Origin: Anaerolineae bacterium
GTDB lineage: Bacteria; Chloroflexota; Anaerolineae; UBA1429
Length of the DNA stretch: 64,000 nt
NCBI GenBank assembly: GCA_963675785.1
Contig: OY776562.1
Location: forward strand, 352,001-416,000
Reading direction: 5' to 3'
Positions 2,856 through 11,193 of the stretch are shown here, in pieces (position 1 is the first letter of the stretch; the number at the start of each line of letters is the position of its first letter). Under the pieces are notes generated by a model, which was not told the origin of the DNA, did no database searches, and was given only the letters and a program-made list of their open reading frames with translations. Position numbers and translations under genes: made by a program.

Positions 2856-3982
2856 GCTTCTACCCTCCCGGGTTTTTCTCTCATTGTAAAACCAATAATC
2901 AGGCATATGGCAATGCCTACAAATACTGCGATCATGCCCCAAGTGGAGATGCCACCGACTTTGACTATGCCATCGACGACCGAGTCGGGCGAAGCAGCCA
3001 AGCTAAAGTTGTGCGCAAAAGCAGCGCCGGCGATCATTCCCAGTACAAAAGTAGCTGCATCGCTATCACCTTCACCCGAAAGGATGAGTTGCCGTCCTGG
3101 GCAACCGCCAGCCAGAGAAAATGCTAAACCAGCGAGTACCATGCCAGCAAAGTTCCAGAGCGTGTTGCTGTGAGCAATAGGCTGACCAGCAAAGCCGAGA
3201 TTGAACTGTCCGAGGATAAGGTTCATGAGGAACGCGACCACGACAAGGGATCCGAGACCACTGATAAGGTGCGTATCGCCCATGAGGATAACATCACGGA
3301 TGGATCCCATGGTGCAGAAACGGGTACGCTGGGCCAAAAAGCCAATGAGCAGACCAGCAGCAAGGGATATGGCGATAGGTGCGGCCATCGAGCCCGGCCC
3401 TGATTCGCTGGAAAAAATGGCACCGCCTTCGGAGAATTGCGGTTGCCAAATAGCCAGAATGAGCAGAAACACCATGATGGAAGGCATGATCCAGCCTACA
3501 GTGGCGCGTTGTGTATGCGCTCGCCCCAGAGTATAACCGTGCTTGAGGAACCACACGCCACCGGCAATGCCAACTGCTAGGCCGACAAGACCGACGATGG
3601 CGTTCATATCTCCGCCAGCCAGACGCAGCAGTGCTCGCCAGGGGCAGCCGAGAAAGACGAGGGCACCGATCATGGCCAGCATACCCAGGATAAAGCGGAT
3701 GATGGGGGCAGAACCACCGCGTGCTTTCCACTCTCTAAAGAGCAATGCGGCGATAACGGAGCCAAGAACAAAGCCCATAATCTCAGGGCGCAAGTATTGC
3801 ACAACACTGGCCCTGTGAAGTCCCAATGCTCCGGCGATATCGCGCTCAAAGCAAGCTACACAGATGCCCATATTGGGCGGATTGCCCCAGTACTGGAGTA
3901 GGGAAGCGAGAATGCCGATGACTGCACCGGCAACGATGATCCCCCATCGAGAGGCGAAAAAGCGAGTCAGTCGTTGGCGCAT
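2852..3982 (-). CDS. yedE: YedE/YeeE family putative selenium transporter
   Basis: Polytopic membrane protein with GNPPNMGICVACFERDIAG, FLGCP, RTRFCTMG and AGGCPGRQ motifs; RBS AGGAGGA. Confidence 0.9.
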   Translation of the reverse strand: MRQRLTRFFASRWGIIVAGAVIGILASLLQYWGNPPNMGICVACFERDIAGALGLHRASVVQYLRPEIMGFVLGSVIAALLFREWKARGGSAPIIRFILGMLAMIGALVFLGCPWRALLRLAGGDMNAIVGLVGLAVGIAGGVWFLKHGYTLGRAHTQRATVGWIMPSIMVFLLILAIWQPQFSEGGAIFSSESGPGSMAAPIAISLAAGLLIGFLAQRTRFCTMGSIRDVILMGDTHLISGLGSLVVVAFLMNLILGQFNLGFAGQPIAHSNTLWNFAGMVLAGLAFSLAGGCPGRQLILSGEGDSDAATFVLGMIAGAAFAHNFSLAASPDSVVDGIVKVGGISTWGMIAVFVGIAICLIIGFTMREKPGRVEA

Positions 3983-3986
3983 GGGT

Positions 3987-4041
3987 TCCTCCTGTGCATG
4001 TTGGGCTGCGCTGGAATGACAGCCCGTTGTGCACGAGGAGA
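3987..4041 (-). promoter_or_regulatory. Putative hairpin sequestering the yedE Shine-Dalgarno
   Basis: UCUCCU(C)GUGCA (4041-4030) pairs with UGCAC-AGGAGG (3998-3988); inner stem GGGCUG/CAGCCC (4025-4020 / 4008-4003). Confidence 0.65.
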
Positions 4042-4152
4042 CTATTTGAGCAGGGAAGGGTCATTCCAGAGGAGCCGTTTGATTTGGTGAGAGCAGAGAG
4101 TGCCGTCCGGCACCCGATTTTTCCGCTCTCAGATTCGATGTTGAATTGGCAT
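4042..4152 (-). CDS. Putative selenocysteine-containing leader peptide (36 aa, MPIQHRI-U-ERKNRVPDGTLCSHQIKRLLWNDPSLLK)
   Basis: RBS AGGAGGA (4164-4158), ATG 4152, in-frame TGA 4131-4129 followed by a SECIS-like hairpin, open to TAG 4044-4042, 59 nt before the yedE ATG. Confidence 0.65.
4088..4131 (-). promoter_or_regulatory. SECIS-like hairpin in the leader ORF
   Basis: Lower stem UGAGAGCGGA/UCUGCUCUCA, 5' bulge AAAAUC, upper stem GGGUGCC/GGCACUC, loop GGAC 20 nt after the UGA. Confidence 0.7.
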
Positions 4153-4204
4153 CACGATCCTCCTAGCGACATGTTGCCAGTATACTCCAAGTGTCAAGAG
4201 TCAT

Positions 4205-4249
4205 AAAGGAAAGAAGAGGGGGGGGCAAGCTTACGCTTGCCCCCCCCTC
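4205..4249 (-). terminator. Intrinsic terminator of giant surface protein A
   Basis: 15-bp G/C-rich stem with GUAA loop, then UUCUUUCCUUU on the minus strand. Confidence 0.85.
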
Positions 4250-6126
4250 GGTCATGCCAAGTTCTAGTAGTTACAAAAGATCAGGGGGAAAGCAATAGTC
4301 GTCGTCGGAGTTCGAAGGGGCTGGTAACTATAGTTACCAAAGGTAGCGCTGCCAGAATCACCATCCAGTAGCTCGACAGAGACAGAAGATTCAGTCGTGC
4401 AGGTCAGGCTACTAGGCGTGACCTCGACGATGCGATAGTTACCGGCACCCAGGCCAGCGATTCGCCAAGAGCCATCTGCGCCGGTCTTGGTGGTAGCCAC
4501 GAGATCTTCCTGGCCGGTTTCCGGATTAACAGCATAGACCTGGATTGTGAGGCCAGCGATACCGGCCTCATTCTGGTCCTGGGCACCGTTCTTGTTGCTA
4601 TCGTTAAAAGCCGTGCCCGAGAGAGAGCCAGGGAAAGAGCAGCCAAAGGAGACATCTGCGGCGATGCCGTCGGCGACAGAGATGTCCTGATAGAGGAGAT
4701 CACAGGTAACGCCGTCGGGGAAATCGGGCACGACGCGGTAGTCGCCGTCGGCCAGGCCGCCGAACTGATAGACACCGGCTGCGCTGGTGGTAGACGTGGT
4801 GATGAGCTCATCATCGCCAGTACCCAGGAGGCCATCAGAGCCAGGGCCATAGATACTGACAAGAATACCAGCCAGAGGAGTCTCGCCATAGTCAGGGAGA
4901 TCATCCTGATCGGCATCATCCCAGATAACGCCAGTGGTTTTGCAAGTCATGGTATCGCCAAAGTTAATGATACTGGGTGTTTTGGTGTTGACCGTAACCT
5001 CGACCTGGCCAGGAGTTGTGCTGACATGACCTTCAGGGTCGATCTCGACGAGAGCGAAACTGGCATAGCCCATGTTATCAAAGACATAGGTACCGAGTTC
5101 AAGCTGAGAGAAACTGTAGAAGCCGTCCTCGTCGGTAATACCTTCAACGAGAAGGAGATCAGCGTTGGGAGAGACGACCTCACTGCGGGCATAGACCTGG
5201 ATGAGGACACCGGCGATACCCTGTTCGGTAGCATCCTGGAGGCCATTGGCATTGGCGTCTTCAAAGACAGTACCAGCGATAGTACCGGTAGGCTGAGCGC
5301 CGACAGAGATAGAGCTGGCGCCGTCGCTACCGATATAGACATCGCGTGTGAGAGGCGATTCGCCGACATAGCCATCGGGATAGTCGATGATGATGCGATA
5401 GTAACCCTCGGGGAGATCACCGAGAGAGACATTGCCGTCCTCATCGGTGGTCAACTCGGTGATGAGGACATCGTCATCGGTACCGAGGATGCCGTCGGGA
5501 CCAGCGGAGATAACGGTGACGGAGGCTCCCGGGAGAGGCTCGTTGTCATCATTCGGCTTATCGCCGAGTTGAGGATCGATACAGGTATGGACATAGAGGG
5601 TGCCTGTTTTGAGATAGCCAAAGGCAGGCTGGGTCATAGATTGACCTTCGCTGATAGAGATTTGGCGTTGAGCGACACCGCTCATAGCGTAGCCATCGAC
5701 ATTGGCAGCGCAGACCATATAGCTACCGTCGGCAAGGCCGGTAAAGACATAGGCACCGTCGGCTTCGGTAGAGCCTGAGGCAACGACGACATCGTCAGCA
5801 GTACCAAAGCGGGCGTCGGCACCGGGTCTGAGGAGAGAAAGGGACACATCGGCCAGTGGGGAGCCGCTTTCCGCGTCCTGCCCCACATAGGCCTTGACGC
5901 GGAGCTGAGCGATGGACTGACAGCCAAAGTTCTTGGAGAGCACGTTACCGGCGATGACATTGACGGTAGCCGGGTTGGCGGTGGTCACGGTACTGCCAGT
6001 GGGAGCAGTGACCTGGATAAGATATGTGCCAGCGAGCAGATCTTCAAAGGCATAGGAGCCGTCGGCTGCAGTCGTGAGAGAACTCAAAGTAGCATCATCG
6101 GCTGTGTAGGCGATGCCGTCGGAGCC
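4230..6126. repeat. Direct repeat copy 1 (~1.9 kb, near-identical to 11571-13467)
   Basis: Matches at offset 7341 with only scattered substitutions (e.g. near 4311, 4350, 4634, 6108); includes the terminator. Confidence 0.95.
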
Positions 6127-9100
6127 TAAAGAGACTAGCTTGACCGAAGCATTTGCTACAGCAGCTTCATCAGTCCCCAACTTGCCGTTTCCATTAGTGT
6201 CTGTATAGATCACACCACTGATATCGCCTGTGGTGGGAGCCGGCGTAGGAGTTGCTTGAGGCGGGACGGTGGGCACCGGTGTAACAGCAGGATTGGGCGT
6301 AGGTGTAGTAACGGCACGATTACTCTCGATAGAGAGGGTAACGGTACAAGTATCGGTGAGGCCGCCCAGATCGACGACGGTATAGGTAAAGGCGTCGTGA
6401 GTAGTGACGGCATAGCTAGCCGAGTAGGCGATGGTGTCGTCGTCTAGGAGAGAGACAGAGCCATAAGTAGAGTCGCCGACGGAAGCGATGGCGAGGTCAC
6501 CGACTTCGATATCTGTATCATTGGCGAGAACGTCGATGATGACCTGTTCACCAGCGCGCACCTCAGCTTCATCCTCCACGGCATCAGGTGAGTCGTTTAC
6601 GGCTATAACGGTCATGCTGATGGTATGGCTGTCACTCAAAGGAGTTCCCGTGCCAGAGTGCCCCAGATCATTTACATCAAGACTGATTGATTCAGGACCC
6701 TCATAGTTGAGATTTCCTTGATAGTAAAGTCCGCTATCGAGCAGAGCGTTGAGGTCTTGGAGACTATCTGTAATGGTTAGTGTACTAGCAGCGTCGATAT
6801 CATTTGTCCCAAGTGTTCCATGTTCTACACTGGCTACCAGTTCAAGATTCTCAGAACCCGAATCGACATCGCTCAATTGAATAGCCAAGGCATCCACGAG
6901 ATTGAGCGTTTCATCTTCATTGACTGAAGCATTTGCAGGAGCCGTGACGACAGGGCTATCGTTGATGGGTGTGATGCTGATGTTGATTGTGCCTGTTACG
7001 ACACCACCCCTACCGTCTGAGACGGTATACACCAATGCATCAGTCCCCGAATCGCCAGGAACAGGATAGTTTGTTGCAGGCGTGTAGACGACTGCTGTTT
7101 TGTCATTCGATACAGCGGCTACGCCATGTTGTGCTGTTGTGACAGAGATAATGATCAGTACTTCATCATCATCTACGTCGCTGTCATTGGACAGAGCAGA
7201 AAATGTATTGCCCACTGAGTCTTCATCAACGGTATAGTCGTCGTCGACCACAACCGGATCATCGTTCACTTCAGTGATAGTAATAGTCAGACTATATGGT
7301 GAAGCAGAGTCTCTACCGCCATTGCTGGTACCACCATCGTCCTTTAGAACGACAGCAACGCGTGTCGTACCATAGGCATTGAGTGCAGGTGTAAAGGTCA
7401 GTGTGCCATCGGCCGATACGGAGGGTTGTTCAGAGAACAGGGCAGTGTCTTCGGCAGTGGCTTCAAAGTGCAGCTCTTGATCGCTTTCATCACTGGGGCC
7501 GGTGGAGAGGTTCGTAGCCCAATTGGCGACGGTTTGAGCGGAAGCATCCTCCAACAGAGTCTGGTCTTCACCGGCATCAAAAGAAGGAGTATCGTTCACG
7601 GGTGTGATATTGATGGTAAAGGTAATAGCATCTGACTCGTCATCACCACCATTAGCAGTGCCGCCGTTATCAGAAAGTATCACTGTAACAGTAGCCGTGC
7701 CATTCATATTGGCTGCTGGCCGATAGGTGAGAGCACCAGTTGATGAGATGGCTGGCTGAGAGCTAAAGAGCGTCGAGTTATTGCTAGAGACCTCAAAGGA
7801 GACGCTTTGGCCACTCTCATCACTGGGACCGGCGGAGAGGTTAGTAGCCCAATTGGCGACGGTTTGAGCGGAAACATCCTCCAACACGGTCTGGTTTGCG
7901 CCAGGGGTGAAGGACGGCGTATCGTTCACGGGTGTGACATTGATGGTAAAGGTAATAGCATCTGTCTCGTCATCACCACCGTTGGCAGTGCCACCGTTGT
8001 CAGAGAGAGTAACAGTAACAGTGGCCGTCCCATTCATGTTAGCAGCAGGCGTAAAGGTGAGCGTGCCGTTGGAAGAAATAGCAGGCTGAGAGCTAAAGAG
8101 TGCCGAGTTATTGCTAGAGACCTCAAAGGAGACGCTTTGGTCACTCTCATCACTGGGGCCGGTGGAGAGGTTCGTAGCCCAATTGGCGACGGTTTGAGCG
8201 GAAGCATCCTCCAACACGGTCTGGTTTGCACCAAGGGTGAAAGAAGGCGTATCGTTCACGGCTGTGACATTGATGGTAAAGGTAATAGCATCTGCCTCGT
8301 CATCACCACCGTTGGCGGTGCCACCGTTGTCAGAGAGAGTAACAGTAACAGTGGCCGTGCCATTCATATTGGCTGCTGGCCGATAGGTGAGCGCACCAGT
8401 TGATGAGATGGCTGGCTGGACGCTAAAGAGTGTCGTGTTGTCATTGGATACGACAAAGGAAACCGTTTGGCCGCTCTCGTCACTGGGGCCTTTGGAGATA
8501 TCTGTGGCCCAGGTAACAGATTGTGAGACTGCATCTTCTAGCACCGTCTGGTTAGCGCCTGGCGTGAAAGAGGGCTCGTCGTTGACTGCGGTTACAATAA
8601 TAGACCATGTTGCTGGTGCACTCCACAATTCGCCATCATAGAGCGAAAAGGTAAAGGAGGTAGAGCCATTCCAGTCTACATCAGGAGCCAGTCGGACATC
8701 GTCAAAATCGGTGTAGGCATAAGCTTGGGATTCATCAACAGCCTCATCATTTCCAAACAAAAGACGGGCGTTAGCGGGCAAGGTGTCGATACGTACAGAG
8801 ACGAGGGCATCTCCGCTATCTGGATCGGAAAAGACGCCGGTGAAATCGCTGCCAGCCAGACCGAAGAAGGTATCCTCCAGTGTTGTTTTTGAAATGCCGG
8901 ACGCGGAGGGTTGCTCGTTGGCATCTATGATGCTGATTGTGAACGTGTGATCATAGTAGAGCCCGCCAGCATCGGTGGAACGCACAGTCACCGAGTAGCT
9001 GTTGTCAGCTTCGTAGTTGAATACAGTTGCTGCTTTTAACGAGTTTCCAGAGATGCTAAAGGCAGAGGTGTCGCCGCCAACTATTGAGTAAGTGAAGCTA

Positions 9101-11193
9101 TCACTGCTGTCTGGGTCAGTACTGCTCAAAGTACCAATTGTAATGTCCAAAGTCTGGTTTTCAACTATAGAGCTGTTTGTAATGCTCAAAGCAGTAGGTG
9201 CTTCGTTGACGTTGGTGACACTGATGGTGAACGCACGGTCATAGTAAAGACCGCCAACATCGGTGGAACGCACGGTCACCAAATAGCTGTTGTCGGTCTC
9301 GTAATTGAACACGGCCGCTGTCTTGAGCGAGCTGCCCGAAATGCTAAAGGCAGAAGTATCTCCACCAACTATTGAGTAAGTGAAGCTATCTCCAGAATCT
9401 GGATCAGTGGTTGACAGCGTGCCAACTGTAGTGCCAGATGATACATTTTCTGCTACGGCATTGTTGGACAAAGCGATCGCCGTGGGTGTCTCGTTGGCAT
9501 TTGTGATACTGATAGTAAAGGCACGGTCATAGTAGAGGCCGGCCGCGTCGGTGGCACGAATAGTGATGGAATAGCTGTTATCAGACTCATAATTGAAGGA
9601 AGTTTCCGTGAGTAGCGTACTCCCCGAGATACTAAAAGCCGAGGTATCGCCACTGACGAGCAAATAGCTAATGGTATCATCGCTATCAGGATCGACGCTG
9701 CTTAGCGTGCCTACTGGCGTTCCAGAAGTCTGATTTTCAGCTAAAGATGTATTTGAAAGAGTAACGGTTGTGGGTGCTTCGTTTAAATCGGTAACGCTGA
9801 TAACATATGTTCGATCAAAATAGAGACCGCCGGCATCGGTAGAACGCACGGTGACCGAGTAGCTGTTATCAGCCTCATAGTTTAATACAGATGAAGTGCG
9901 TAACGTGCTACCAGAGATGTTAAAGTAACCAGTATCTCCACTAACGAGTGAATAGGTAAATGTATCGCTACTATCCGGGTCGGTTGTGGAGAGCGTGCCT
10001 ACTGTGGTGTTTGCAGAGGCGTTTTCTGCTACAGAGTTGTTGGACAGGCTCATCGCCGTTGGCGACTCGTTTACATTTAGGATGGGCACAGTGAGCCATT
10101 CACTGTAGGTATTGGCGTAGCTGTCGGTGGCTTGAATCTGTACCTGATAAGAAGAGATTTGTTCATAGTCAAAGCTTGAACCTAAAGCCGTCACGAGAGA
10201 ATAGGTACCTTCGGATTCGGTGATGGCAAACTGACCGTCAGCATCATTGAGCAGGATAAAGGTATGTGTATCGTTGAGGTCAGCATCTGTGGCGGCCAAG
10301 GGGCCGATTTCTGTGCCAGGAGCGCTATTTTCAGGCAGGCCTACTTGCCAATCAGAGACTTGGCCATCATGCACGAGCCAAAGCCAGACGCCCGCATGAT
10401 CGATATTGGTAGCATCCGAGGCGGTATCGAGAGCCAACATGGCGGCGTTGTCGCCAGATTGAGGCAACTCGGAATAGTTGGTCTGGTCGCCAGCGGTCCA
10501 ACCTGCGGTTGCCGTAGTCGATGTGTCAGTGAGAATCCATTCAATAGCTTCATAGCGGATTTCGATGGCAAAGTCACCACCGCCGATATCCCAGAGGCGA
10601 ATCTGGAAGGCGTTGGACTTGTCATTGTGTGAAGAGTAATAGCCGGTGTCATCAAAAGTGATGGTGACACAGTCATTGACGGTATCGATGTCGTACCAGA
10701 TTTGGTTACTGCCTTGCGAGTTACCCGTTGTATCGTAGGTAATGCTGGAAGCACGAGTATCGACATCGCCAAAGTAAGCGGCGATCATGGGAACGGTGGA
10801 ACCGGCGATACCCCAGGGACTGTAAGAGCTAGAGCCTTCACCAAAAGTGACATAGCCGTTACGTCCAATAAAGAACTCAGTAGCGGCGTCGTAAGGGGTC
10901 TCTCTAAAGTAGTTGAGGCCATTCTCAAAAACGGCAGAGATATCGACTTGCTGATAGCCATCGTCTCCTTTGGAGACACTGCCCTCACCAAAGCCATAGG
11001 TACCACCGAGACCATTGACGAGATAGTGACCGGATTCGATGTATAGACTACCGTTGCCGCTTGTGGAGAGGCCGAACTTGATTTTAGTAGGTGCTACGCC
11101 TTCGGCGGATACGGTTGGCACAAGTCCTAGCAAGGCCGTGGCTAGAAGCAAGAATGCTGCAAGAATGAGAGTAAGTCGATGTGGCGATTGCAT
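4264..11193 (-). CDS. Giant secreted/surface protein A (2309 aa): signal peptide, nidogen-like (NIDO) domain, cadherin repeats, Ig-like repeats, P/T linker, SdrD-B-like repeats, C-terminal FPLIF motif
   Basis: Signal peptide ending VSA; NIDO-like IAAYFGDVDTR and NAFQIRL; cadherin motifs DxD, FNYE, NEAPT; ISGxVFxDxNxNG and GxDGxxGTxDD repeats; RBS GGAGG. Confidence 0.85.
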   Translation of the reverse strand: MQSPHRLTLILAAFLLLATALLGLVPTVSAEGVAPTKIKFGLSTSGNGSLYIESGHYLVNGLGGTYGFGEGSVSKGDDGYQQVDISAVFENGLNYFRETPYDAATEFFIGRNGYVTFGEGSSSYSPWGIAGSTVPMIAAYFGDVDTRASSITYDTTGNSQGSNQIWYDIDTVNDCVTITFDDTGYYSSHNDKSNAFQIRLWDIGGGDFAIEIRYEAIEWILTDTSTTATAGWTAGDQTNYSELPQSGDNAAMLALDTASDATNIDHAGVWLWLVHDGQVSDWQVGLPENSAPGTEIGPLAATDADLNDTHTFILLNDADGQFAITESEGTYSLVTALGSSFDYEQISSYQVQIQATDSYANTYSEWLTVPILNVNESPTAMSLSNNSVAENASANTTVGTLSTTDPDSSDTFTYSLVSGDTGYFNISGSTLRTSSVLNYEADNSYSVTVRSTDAGGLYFDRTYVISVTDLNEAPTTVTLSNTSLAENQTSGTPVGTLSSVDPDSDDTISYLLVSGDTSAFSISGSTLLTETSFNYESDNSYSITIRATDAAGLYYDRAFTISITNANETPTAIALSNNAVAENVSSGTTVGTLSTTDPDSGDSFTYSIVGGDTSAFSISGSSLKTAAVFNYETDNSYLVTVRSTDVGGLYYDRAFTISVTNVNEAPTALSITNSSIVENQTLDITIGTLSSTDPDSSDSFTYSIVGGDTSAFSISGNSLKAATVFNYEADNSYSVTVRSTDAGGLYYDHTFTISIIDANEQPSASGISKTTLEDTFFGLAGSDFTGVFSDPDSGDALVSVRIDTLPANARLLFGNDEAVDESQAYAYTDFDDVRLAPDVDWNGSTSFTFSLYDGELWSAPATWSIIVTAVNDEPSFTPGANQTVLEDAVSQSVTWATDISKGPSDESGQTVSFVVSNDNTTLFSVQPAISSTGALTYRPAANMNGTATVTVTLSDNGGTANGGDDEADAITFTINVTAVNDTPSFTLGANQTVLEDASAQTVANWATNLSTGPSDESDQSVSFEVSSNNSALFSSQPAISSNGTLTFTPAANMNGTATVTVTLSDNGGTANGGDDETDAITFTINVTPVNDTPSFTPGANQTVLEDVSAQTVANWATNLSAGPSDESGQSVSFEVSSNNSTLFSSQPAISSTGALTYRPAANMNGTATVTVILSDNGGTANGGDDESDAITFTINITPVNDTPSFDAGEDQTLLEDASAQTVANWATNLSTGPSDESDQELHFEATAEDTALFSEQPSVSADGTLTFTPALNAYGTTRVAVVLKDDGGTSNGGRDSASPYSLTITITEVNDDPVVVDDDYTVDEDSVGNTFSALSNDSDVDDDEVLIIISVTTAQHGVAAVSNDKTAVVYTPATNYPVPGDSGTDALVYTVSDGRGGVVTGTINISITPINDSPVVTAPANASVNEDETLNLVDALAIQLSDVDSGSENLELVASVEHGTLGTNDIDAASTLTITDSLQDLNALLDSGLYYQGNLNYEGPESISLDVNDLGHSGTGTPLSDSHTISMTVIAVNDSPDAVEDEAEVRAGEQVIIDVLANDTDIEVGDLAIASVGDSTYGSVSLLDDDTIAYSASYAVTTHDAFTYTVVDLGGLTDTCTVTLSIESNRAVTTPTPNPAVTPVPTVPPQATPTPAPTTGDISGVIYTDTNGNGKLGTDEAAVANASVKLVSLGSDGIAYTADDATLSSLTTAADGSYAFEDLLAGTYLIQVTAPTGSTVTTANPATVNVIAGNVLSKNFGCQSIAQLRVKAYVGQDAESGSPLADVSLSLLRPGADARFGTADDVVVASGSTEADGAYVFTGLADGSYMVCAANVDGYAMSGVAQRQISISEGQSMTQPAFGYLKTGTLYVHTCIDPQLGDKPNDDNEPLPGASVTVISAGPDGILGTDDDVLITELTTDEDGNVSLGDLPEGYYRIIIDYPDGYVGESPLTRDVYIGSDGASSISVGAQPTGTIAGTVFEDANANGLQDATEQGIAGVLIQVYARSEVVSPNADLLLVEGITDEDGFYSFSQLELGTYVFDNMGYASFALVEIDPEGHVSTTPGQVEVTVNTKTPSIINFGDTMTCKTTGVIWDDADQDDLPDYGETPLAGILVSIYGPGSDGLLGTGDDELITTSTTSAAGVYQFGGLADGDYRVVPDFPDGVTCDLLYQDISVADGIAADVSFGCSFPGSLSGTAFNDSNKNGAQDQNEAGIAGLTIQVYAVNPETGQEDLVATTKTGADGSWRIAGLGAGNYRIVEVTPSSLTCTTESSVSVELLDGDSGSATFGNYSYQPLRTPTTTIAFPLIFCNY
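7270..8586 (-). repeat. Four tandem ~330-bp coding repeats (110-aa Ig-like units)
   Basis: VND codons recur at about 7261, 7591, 7921, 8251 and 8578; unit PSFTxGANQTVLED...DNGGTANGGDD. Confidence 0.9.
8923..10074 (-). repeat. Four tandem 288-bp coding repeats (96-aa cadherin units)
   Basis: NExP codons recur at about 8914, 9202, 9490, 9778 and 10066. Confidence 0.88.

Follow-up and report, generated by a model that had tools for sequence, protein, structure and literature searches.

The 64,000-nt stretch analyzed here (the window) is part of contig OY776562.1 from an Anaerolineae bacterium, and all coordinates below refer to this window. The region at 4164-3983 is probably the leader of a selenium-assimilation operon and a ribosome-mediated sensor of selenocysteine (Sec) decoding. 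The leader, its hairpins and the operon are all located on the minus strand and are read as minus-strand RNA. An initial annotation, made from the sequence alone, had proposed that alternative RNA helices in this region connect read-through of a UGA codon in a short open reading frame (ORF) to the ribosome-binding site of yedE, the first gene of the operon.

The leader ORF is preceded by a Shine-Dalgarno sequence (SD), AGGAGG at 4164-4159, which is located 6 nt before the AUG at 4152. Seven codons (MPIQHRI) are followed by an in-frame UGA as codon 8 (4131-4129, codons 1 to 8 spanning 4152-4129), and the frame stays open past the UGA for another 28 codons (4128-4042) that end at a UAG at 4044-4042, giving a read-through product of 36 residues. 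The UGA opens a predicted 44-nt hairpin (4131-4088, -25.5 kcal/mol), in which a lower stem pairs 4131-4122 with 4097-4088 and an upper stem pairs 4115-4109 with 4104-4098 around a GGAC loop at 4108-4105. In the selenocysteine insertion sequence (SECIS) elements of bacteria, the UGA is placed inside a translated ORF, the upper stem is located about 11 nt from the UGA and a G, often GU, opens the apical loop. The window UGA, as judged from its sequence context, lies in-frame inside an ORF that would be translated, and the modelled hairpin, with an upper stem that begins 13 nt past the UGA, appears compatible with the spacing and the loop G. No SECIS family in Rfam matched the leader. We infer that Sec would be inserted at the UGA at 4131-4129. 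The leader's own SD is paired in the minimum free energy (MFE) fold, where it is occupied by a helix, P1, formed by 4163-4154 and 4068-4078 (-13.1 kcal/mol).

A second predicted hairpin, at 4041-3988, covers the 54 nt after the UAG (-27.0 kcal/mol). Together with the upstream read-through ORF it contains four segments of interest. Segment 1 (CUGGAAUGAC, 4069-4060) is located inside the ORF, 60-69 nt past the UGA, in a frame that is open to the UAG. Segment 2 (UCUCCUCGUGCA, 4041-4030), the anti-SD strand, starts right after the UAG. The hairpin has its apex in segment 3 (GUCAUUCCAG, 4020-4011), which matches the reverse complement of segment 1 exactly, and segment 4 (UGCACAGGAGG, 3998-3988) contains the yedE SD, AGGAGG at 3993-3988, upstream of the yedE AUG at 3982. 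All of these sequence statements in the initial annotation were correct, as were the pairings it had drawn for the SD: the MFE fold contains the 11 pairs of helix 2:4 (4041-4030 with 3988-3998) as well as the reinforcing inner stem GGGCUG/CAGCCC at 4025-4003, which carries segment 3 and AGCC 4007-4004 at its apex. As in a translational attenuator, the yedE SD is paired in the default fold (probability of being unpaired, P(SD unpaired), 0.03-0.17).

The complementarity between segments 1 and 3 is non-random. The helix 1:3 core has an energy of -14.5 kcal/mol, and the extension through GGCU/AGCC adds to this, giving -23.2 kcal/mol. Of 1000 dinucleotide shuffles, 0.3% contained a perfect complement of at least 10 nt joining the post-SECIS portion of the ORF to the hairpin and 0.8% reached the observed duplex energy, while a separate test of the duplex energy yielded z = -3.1 (p = 0.005). 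When the whole 198-nt leader was considered, a perfect complement of at least 10 nt was found anywhere in 0.5% of 400 shuffles. A scan for intrinsic terminators identified none between the leader and yedE, the only such site on this strand being at 4249-4216, behind the upstream gene. The window thereby lacks the terminator between leader and gene that characterizes trp-type attenuators, and since the SD is sequestered in the MFE fold, control would be translational, as had been suggested at the outset.

The operon begins with yedE (3982-2852), which encodes a putative selenium transporter (TIGR04112, 492.8 bits against a cut-off of 200; Pfam Sulf_transp). The yedE stop codon is overlapped by the ATG of a short yedF-like gene for a TusA-domain protein (2855-2649; Pfam TusA; TIGR03527 50.5 bits, below the cut-off of 110). 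This is followed by a cysteine desulfurase family gene (2652-1420, start codon uncertain; TIGR01977 452.5 bits against a cut-off of 377; Pfam Aminotran_5), the product of which resembles selenocysteine lyase (SclA score 367.7, below the cut-off), by a gene for a putative Se/S carrier protein, formerly DUF3343 (1423-1205; PF11823 68.3 bits), and by selD for selenophosphate synthetase (1161-112; TIGR00476 392 bits with its TGA read through). From the in-frame TGA at 1113-1111, SelD would itself be a selenoprotein. This TGA is found in the context ...AAG-U-AAK..., and the loop of the hairpin that follows it is of the CUGA type, compared with GGAC in the leader. The genome also carries tRNA-Sec (64.2 bits, anticodon tca), selB (319 bits) and selA (556 bits) in addition to selD. 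On these assignments, the leader appears to head a complete selenium-assimilation operon in a Sec-decoding organism.

Homologues of YedE were found in 38 of 61 related genomes. At 25 of 30 yedE loci in these relatives, the upstream sequence, hand-picked from candidates, showed the same arrangement of a ribosome-binding site, an ORF of 5-12 codons with ...H-R-R-T at its end, the UGA and a hairpin whose loop is of the GGUU type. The remaining five consisted of two loci without upstream sequence, two with other genes upstream and one that was divergent. The relatives, named genomes and metagenomes together provided 66 unique leaders, and a covariance model was built from 38 of these. Of 80 genome loci and 80 metagenome loci, the model matched 25 and 49, respectively. 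All 74 matches have the orientation of the coding strand and precede yedE by 100-300 nt.

In a search of 151 genomes of the class, matches to the covariance model were obtained in 36. The leader was the sole match in the genome of the window (30.6 bits, E = 3e-4), the next best hit having E = 0.18. According to the titles of the named records, the carriers are Chloroflexota (Anaerolineae, Caldilineae and Thermoflexales), and there were no covariance-model matches at about 40 loci labelled Desulfobacterota, Acidobacteriota or similar. One metagenome contig (L137) contained a divergent leader upstream of yedE, consisting of MFFFFQPHT-UGA, a hairpin with a GGUC loop and then a terminator. It was missed by both the model and the filter, and the family is therefore wider than counted here.

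Genes downstream of the leaders were assigned by Pfam scans of all long ORFs. For 29 genome matches, the downstream gene was of the YedE type in 18 cases, of the SelD type in three and a class-V aminotransferase gene in one; the remaining seven were followed by other genes, and five of these are the weakest matches and look false. The four leaders in front of SelD-type (AIRS/AIRS_C, three cases) and aminotransferase (one case) genes are L216, L217, L218 and L225, from genomes G120, G159, G051 and G085, and in G051 no YedE match was obtained with the window protein as query. These sequence assignments suggest a small selenium regulon.

One genome in this search (L249, G078:C76:1800-9800) contained a pair of leaders with high scores, which are separated by 2.7 kb (contig positions 2387 and 5141). 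The second precedes yedE, while the first, with 76.6 bits the best of the class search, is followed by genes for a nucleotidyltransferase, a chorismate mutase and a DAHP synthase. Among the YedE matches, some were interrupted by one in-frame stop, which was TGA in L035 (genome G047) and TAG in L024, L029 and L046. A Sec-containing YeeE/YedE family protein is listed in a 2026 review of prokaryotic selenoproteomes, and L035 might be a selenoprotein form of YedE.

We also examined the leaders for signs of translation. Arg is present at codon -3 in 61 of the 66 leaders, encoded by CGC, CGA, CGG or CGT, and Thr at codon -1 in 55 (ACC, ACA, ACG or ACT), with either Thr or Ile in 63. This variation at third codon positions is the pattern of a translated peptide. 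The UGA is invariant in the alignment of 38 sequences. The loop of the SECIS-like hairpin begins 18 nt past the UGA in 48 of the 66 leaders, the upper stem begins 11 nt past the UGA in 34, and a G is among the first two loop bases in all except one (65/66). The stem covaries, such that the upper-stem pairs are kept in 95-100% of the sequences with compensatory changes. A second stop codon is located exactly 78 nt past the UGA in 28 leaders.

Intrinsic terminators were called 102-170 nt past the UGA in 51 of the 66 leaders, with one doubtful call (L195). For the analysis of pairing strands, we used an alignment of 37 of these terminator-type leaders. Strand A consists of the leader codons and the UGA, strand B is located about 43-66 nt past the UGA inside the read-through ORF and ends 10 nt before its stop codon, strand C corresponds to the 5' arm and loop of the terminator, and strand D to its 3' arm and U tract. 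In the terminator helix C:D, 98% and 88% of cells were paired, with both-sided changes at 11 of 12 pairs; the corresponding values were 88% and 85% (11 of 16 pairs) for the anti-terminator helix B:C and 71% and 77% (10 of 16 pairs) for helix A:B. These values were not attained in any of 500 shuffles, and controls in which the strands were slid gave 30-55% pairing. The reading frame of the leader is open for at least 66 nt past the UGA, across B, in 51 of 51 terminator-type leaders, compared with 73% and 63% for the other frames, and the read-through stop is located 19-37 nt before the terminator. The pattern of conservation indicates what is apparently the architecture of a trp attenuator, in which Sec is the control codon and the loop that connects strands 1 and 2 holds the SECIS hairpin.

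The window leader can be aligned with this scheme by position. Segment 1 is located 60-69 nt past the UGA, with 15 nt separating it from the second stop. It occupies the position of strand B in the relatives, and like B it pairs with the loop of a downstream hairpin. In the wider strand at 4078-4060, the 5' part (4078-4068) is taken up by P1, and segment 1 together with GGCU 4077-4074 is complementary to the hairpin apex. Among YedE relatives, those nearest in sequence (77-79% identity, the best being L128 with 79%) carry leaders of the terminator type, and the SD-sequestering hairpin of the window therefore looks like a lineage-specific replacement of the terminator.

The 5' boundary of the leader region is set by the intrinsic terminator of an upstream gene, a 15-pair stem followed by a T-rich tail at 4249-4216. 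In Rfam, 4211-4267 on the minus strand scored below threshold against BjrC68, an sRNA of Bradyrhizobiaceae (32.3 bits against a gathering score of 39), which most likely just reflects a similar GC-rich terminator hairpin. The upstream gene itself, a 2309-aa ORF at 4264-11193 on the minus strand that ends just upstream of the leader, contains many tandem repeats of about 100 aa with the recurring motif NEAPT...LSNxSxxEN, and its product looks like a cadherin-like surface protein. Between this gene and the leader ORF a -10-like TATACT can be read at 4184-4179, where a consensus promoter scan called no promoter. TTGACA at 4197-4192 was rejected as a canonical -35 element, since the spacer to TATACT is only 7 nt.

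We consider it highly probable that the leader is a regulator that depends on Sec decoding. A ribosome would start at AUG 4152 and meet the UGA at codon 8 with its SECIS-like hairpin. If Sec-tRNA(Sec)-SelB is available, Sec would be inserted and the ribosome would translate another 28 codons to the UAG, running through strand B (4078-4060); if not, the ribosome would stop at the UGA. According to Kotini et al. (PMC4513850), recoding needs sufficient selenium, and ribosomes that fail to insert Sec are terminated by RF2. This fork between recoding and release by RF2 is what the leader would exploit.

Our preferred reading, to which we give about an even chance, is that the operon is ON at low selenium and OFF when selenium is sufficient. 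In the window, helix 1:3 with its GGCU/AGCC extension would form during transcription in the case of no read-through and keep the sequestering hairpin open, so that yedE is translated at low selenium. A read-through ribosome would strip segment 1 from its partner, and the hairpin would close after the ribosome has left the UAG. In the terminator-type relatives, a ribosome held at the UGA would cover strand A, leaving B to pair with C, and transcription would read on, whereas a ribosome that inserts Sec would cross B and park between B and C, upon which A:B and the terminator would form. Exit through Sec insertion would be expected only to shorten the time that the ribosome spends on strand A. 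ON at low selenium is the homeostatic direction for an uptake operon, and it matches the behaviour of yedE in Methanococcus maripaludis, the mRNA of which increased 5.3 log2-fold on selenium depletion (PMC11097638).

Several results weigh against this reading of the window. The two helices had been called mutually exclusive, which holds for their topology and does not hold for their bases, since 1:3 and 2:4 share zero nucleotides. The only overlap of 1:3 with the inner stem consists of one or two bases of segment 3 and the GGCU/AGCC extension, and P1, 1:3 and 2:4 overlap mutually by at most 2 nt plus the 4-nt extension. From the fold models, a pseudoknot that holds 1:3 and 2:4 together with the SD closed is possible, with loops of 18, 9 and 12 nt. 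Exclusion of 2:4 would be expected only for the extended form of 1:3, where no more than 5 nt remain to span the distance to segment 4. Furthermore, P1 in the window takes the leader SD and not, as in the relatives, the codons beside the UGA, so that strand B, unlike its counterpart in the relatives, is not released by a ribosome at the UGA.

The equilibrium folds point in the same direction. In the full-length ensemble, P(1:3) was 0.000 and forcing the helix cost 5.2 kcal/mol. The initial annotation had proposed a comparison of folds with segment 1 masked and free, and here its expectation failed, as P(SD unpaired) was 0.03-0.08 in both. With a ribosome at the UGA the comparison was likewise flat, at 0.17 versus 0.18. 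The sole state that opened the SD was a ribosome at the UAG, with a footprint over segment 2 and not over segment 1, which lifted the accessibility to 0.64. Of the original view of the leader as a selenium-linked regulatory device, the conserved family tied to selenium genes stands, but the switch does not operate at equilibrium. For transcripts ending at 4011 or 4003, before segment 4, P(1:3) was 0.8-0.99 with or without a ribosome at the UGA, and for those ending at 3999 it was 0.37-0.995, by which a kinetic, co-transcriptional form of the 1:3 switch would be possible.

No close leader relative was found with which covariation of the window helices 1:3 or 2:4 could be compared. Four DNA runs gave two contigs identical to the window and two variant contigs. 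In both variants AAC is inserted between 4026 and 4025, a site within the internal loop of the sequestering hairpin. The first also has a synonymous change at 4051, and the second has changes at 4093 and 4124 (G-C to G-U and G-U to A-U, in the same order), by which the lower-stem pairs of the SECIS-like hairpin are kept, as well as a change at 4120, a loop position. Segments 1 to 4 are unchanged in the two variant contigs, which is consistent with constraint, and the variants therefore provide no covariation test of these helices.

Equilibrium folds of 50 terminator-type leaders with three ribosome masks yielded median P(terminator) values of 0.93, 0.92 and 0.94, and since the states were not separated, equilibrium folding cannot settle the polarity. 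Truncated folds of the terminator-type leaders gave uninformative summaries of pairing partners because of GC-rich, promiscuous pairing. Per-sequence duplex tests of the leaders without a terminator identified a significant complement between ORF and platform in only 4 of 15, and ten sequestering-type leaders of "class 2" were too diverged for alignment past the SECIS.

The strongest rival is the same sensor with the opposite polarity, ON at high selenium, which we regard as possible but less likely. Here the MFE fold, with P1, the SECIS-like hairpin and the sequestering hairpin, would correspond to OFF at low selenium, since ribosomes that stop at the UGA do not get as far as the platform. 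After Sec insertion, the ribosome would open P1, cross segment 1 and park at the UAG over the anti-SD strand (4041-4030), so that the yedE ribosome-binding site is exposed by a translational coupling through unmasking. Helix 1:3 would act as an additional lock in the form of a pseudoknot, opened by read-through ribosomes alone. The initial annotation had left room for this outcome, noting that a ribosome at the UAG would also cover segment 2, and it is supported by the rise in SD accessibility from 0.17 to 0.64 in this state only, by the UAG that directly abuts segment 2 and by the fact that the minimum-energy state is OFF. Helices 1:3 and 2:4 without shared bases fit such a double lock. In addition, P1 sequesters the leader SD, such that read-through would reinforce itself, and the selD gene of the operon needs Sec itself, which is a precedent for positive feedback.

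The position of the parked ribosome in other leaders speaks for both sides. Among 12 sequestering-type leaders with an SD that is paired in the MFE fold, the footprint of a ribosome at the second stop covers the whole anti-SD strand in four, including the window, part of it in one and none of it in seven, in an automatic test whose outcome varied with the sub-region folded. In the terminator-type relatives, strand A consists of the leader codons and the UGA, and a ribosome parked between B and C should favour termination. An uptake operon with this polarity would also be induced by its own product without negative feedback, and in M. maripaludis yedE is induced by selenium depletion (PMC11097638). 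Three sequestering-type leaders from one genus (L227, L231 and L233) have pre-UGA codons with the capacity to pair to the 5' arm of their SECIS hairpin, and in these models formation of the SECIS would require a ribosome over the leader codons. In all three, 11-13 nt lie between the second stop and the anti-SD arm.

Mechanisms without read-through are improbable as a group. In one of these, for which the chances are slim, the hairpin is an operator for SelB and not a working SECIS: the 8-codon ORF ends at the UGA, and SelB with or without Sec-tRNA would shift the fold, as it does at the SECIS-like element of the E. coli selAB leader. The hairpin apex is indeed the best conserved part of the element, selB is present in the genome, and the extension peptide is conserved no further than the RNA structure imposes; in the variant contig from run X12, two of three changes in the extension are non-synonymous and yet the structure is kept. 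Against an operator stand the invariant UGA at a fixed distance to the hairpin, always behind a short ORF with its own SD, the variation of Arg -3 and Thr -1 at third codon positions, as expected of a translated peptide, and the read-through frame that is open across B in every terminator-type leader (51/51, against 63-73% in the other frames). A reading of the ORF as the gene of a small selenoprotein (36 residues in the window) that has its own function, with merely incidental helices, is hardly credible, since the in-frame UGA and the hairpin at SECIS spacing, which are the signature of a selenoprotein gene, are accompanied by an extension that varies from 57 to 123 nt in length with residues conserved only at RNA helices, by terminators and anti-terminators that covary with the extension, and by a position that is always directly upstream of selenium genes.

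Returning to the leader as a sensor of Sec decoding with ON at low selenium as the preferred polarity, a more specific and more tentative model can be formulated for the Chloroflexota. In this model, which we put forward as somewhat less probable than not, ribosomes gauge Sec-tRNA(Sec) at a UGA-SECIS in a mini-ORF, the H-R-R-T end of the nascent peptide holds or releases the ribosome, and two interchangeable outputs, a terminator or a mask over the ribosome-binding site, control a regulon of yedE operons, selD and the desulfurase/lyase gene.

Searches for a previously described element of this kind were negative within their scope. In Rfam 15 no family covered 4040-4165 at E <= 10, and none was found at E <= 0.1 in four related loci. 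A full-text literature search, which did not cover supplements, retrieved no description of a Sec-codon leader or selenium attenuator. The comparative genomics study in which YedE and YedF were proposed (Lin et al. 2015, PMC5322559) contains no Sec-codon leader in its accessible text and names only a putative LysR-type factor for selenium regulation there. The words leader, attenuation and riboswitch are absent from the available text of the 2026 review of prokaryotic selenoproteomes, and a 2026 preprint on intergenic features mentions SECIS elements, in the part available, only inside selenoprotein genes. As far as the accessible literature goes, bacterial selenium sensing and the regulation of selenium uptake are described as largely unknown.

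If the proposal is true, the leader would be the first attenuator with a recoded stop as its control codon, and would provide a direct, testable mechanism for selenium homeostasis through Sec decoding. Classical attenuation would gain a control codon of a new kind, with the same sensor feeding two output modules, and YedE, YedF, the Se/S carrier protein and SelD would be joined in a single regulated unit, in support of their proposed roles. The leader would also be a compact selenium-responsive genetic part. For annotation purposes, a UGA with a SECIS upstream of genes need not mean that a selenoprotein gene is present.

The leaders would belong to leader-peptide attenuation, and what would be new is a recoded stop codon in the role of the control codon. 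In the attenuators of the trp, his, leu and thr operons, a short ORF with a ribosome-binding site carries the control codon in strand 1, and helices 1:2, 2:3 and 3:4, the last being the terminator, are the alternatives. The terminator-type relatives share these features: their ORF is likewise short and served by a ribosome-binding site of its own, strand 1 contains the control codon, there are three helices that alternate, and the position of the leading ribosome would decide the outcome. They differ in that the control codon would be a stop recoded as Sec, with the loop that joins strands 1 and 2 taken up by a SECIS hairpin. The ribosome would accordingly either stop or read on, where in the amino-acid operons it stalls or reads on. 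The window differs further by having no terminator.

In this respect the window resembles the translational attenuation of ermC and cat, where a leader ORF precedes a hairpin that sequesters the SD and the ribosome stalls in the presence of the drug. In both, the leader ORF is located upstream of a hairpin that hides the SD of the regulated gene, and in the window, too, the position of the ribosome would decide its exposure. Unlike in ermC and cat, there is no drug-dependent stall in the window, and the proposed anti-sequestering helix pairs with the hairpin apex and shares no bases with the SD helix. A different kind of similarity is seen with the 5' leader of E. coli selAB, which contains a SECIS-like element bound by SelB: in the leaders described here, too, a SECIS-type hairpin would regulate genes of the selenium pathway and would not be used for making an enzyme. 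The hairpin described here follows an in-frame UGA in a mini-ORF that is predicted to be translated and is joined to a terminator or sequestering platform, unlike the selAB element, and the genes proposed to be controlled are yedE and selD operons in Chloroflexota.

A further parallel is fdhF(Sec) of Treponema primitia, for which selenium control of transcription by translational uncoupling is reported (PMC3892789). There, as proposed for the leader, failed decoding of a Sec UGA alters what the transcript yields downstream. The effect in T. primitia takes place inside the selenoprotein gene itself, whereas in the Chloroflexota a dedicated leader with alternative helices would regulate other genes.

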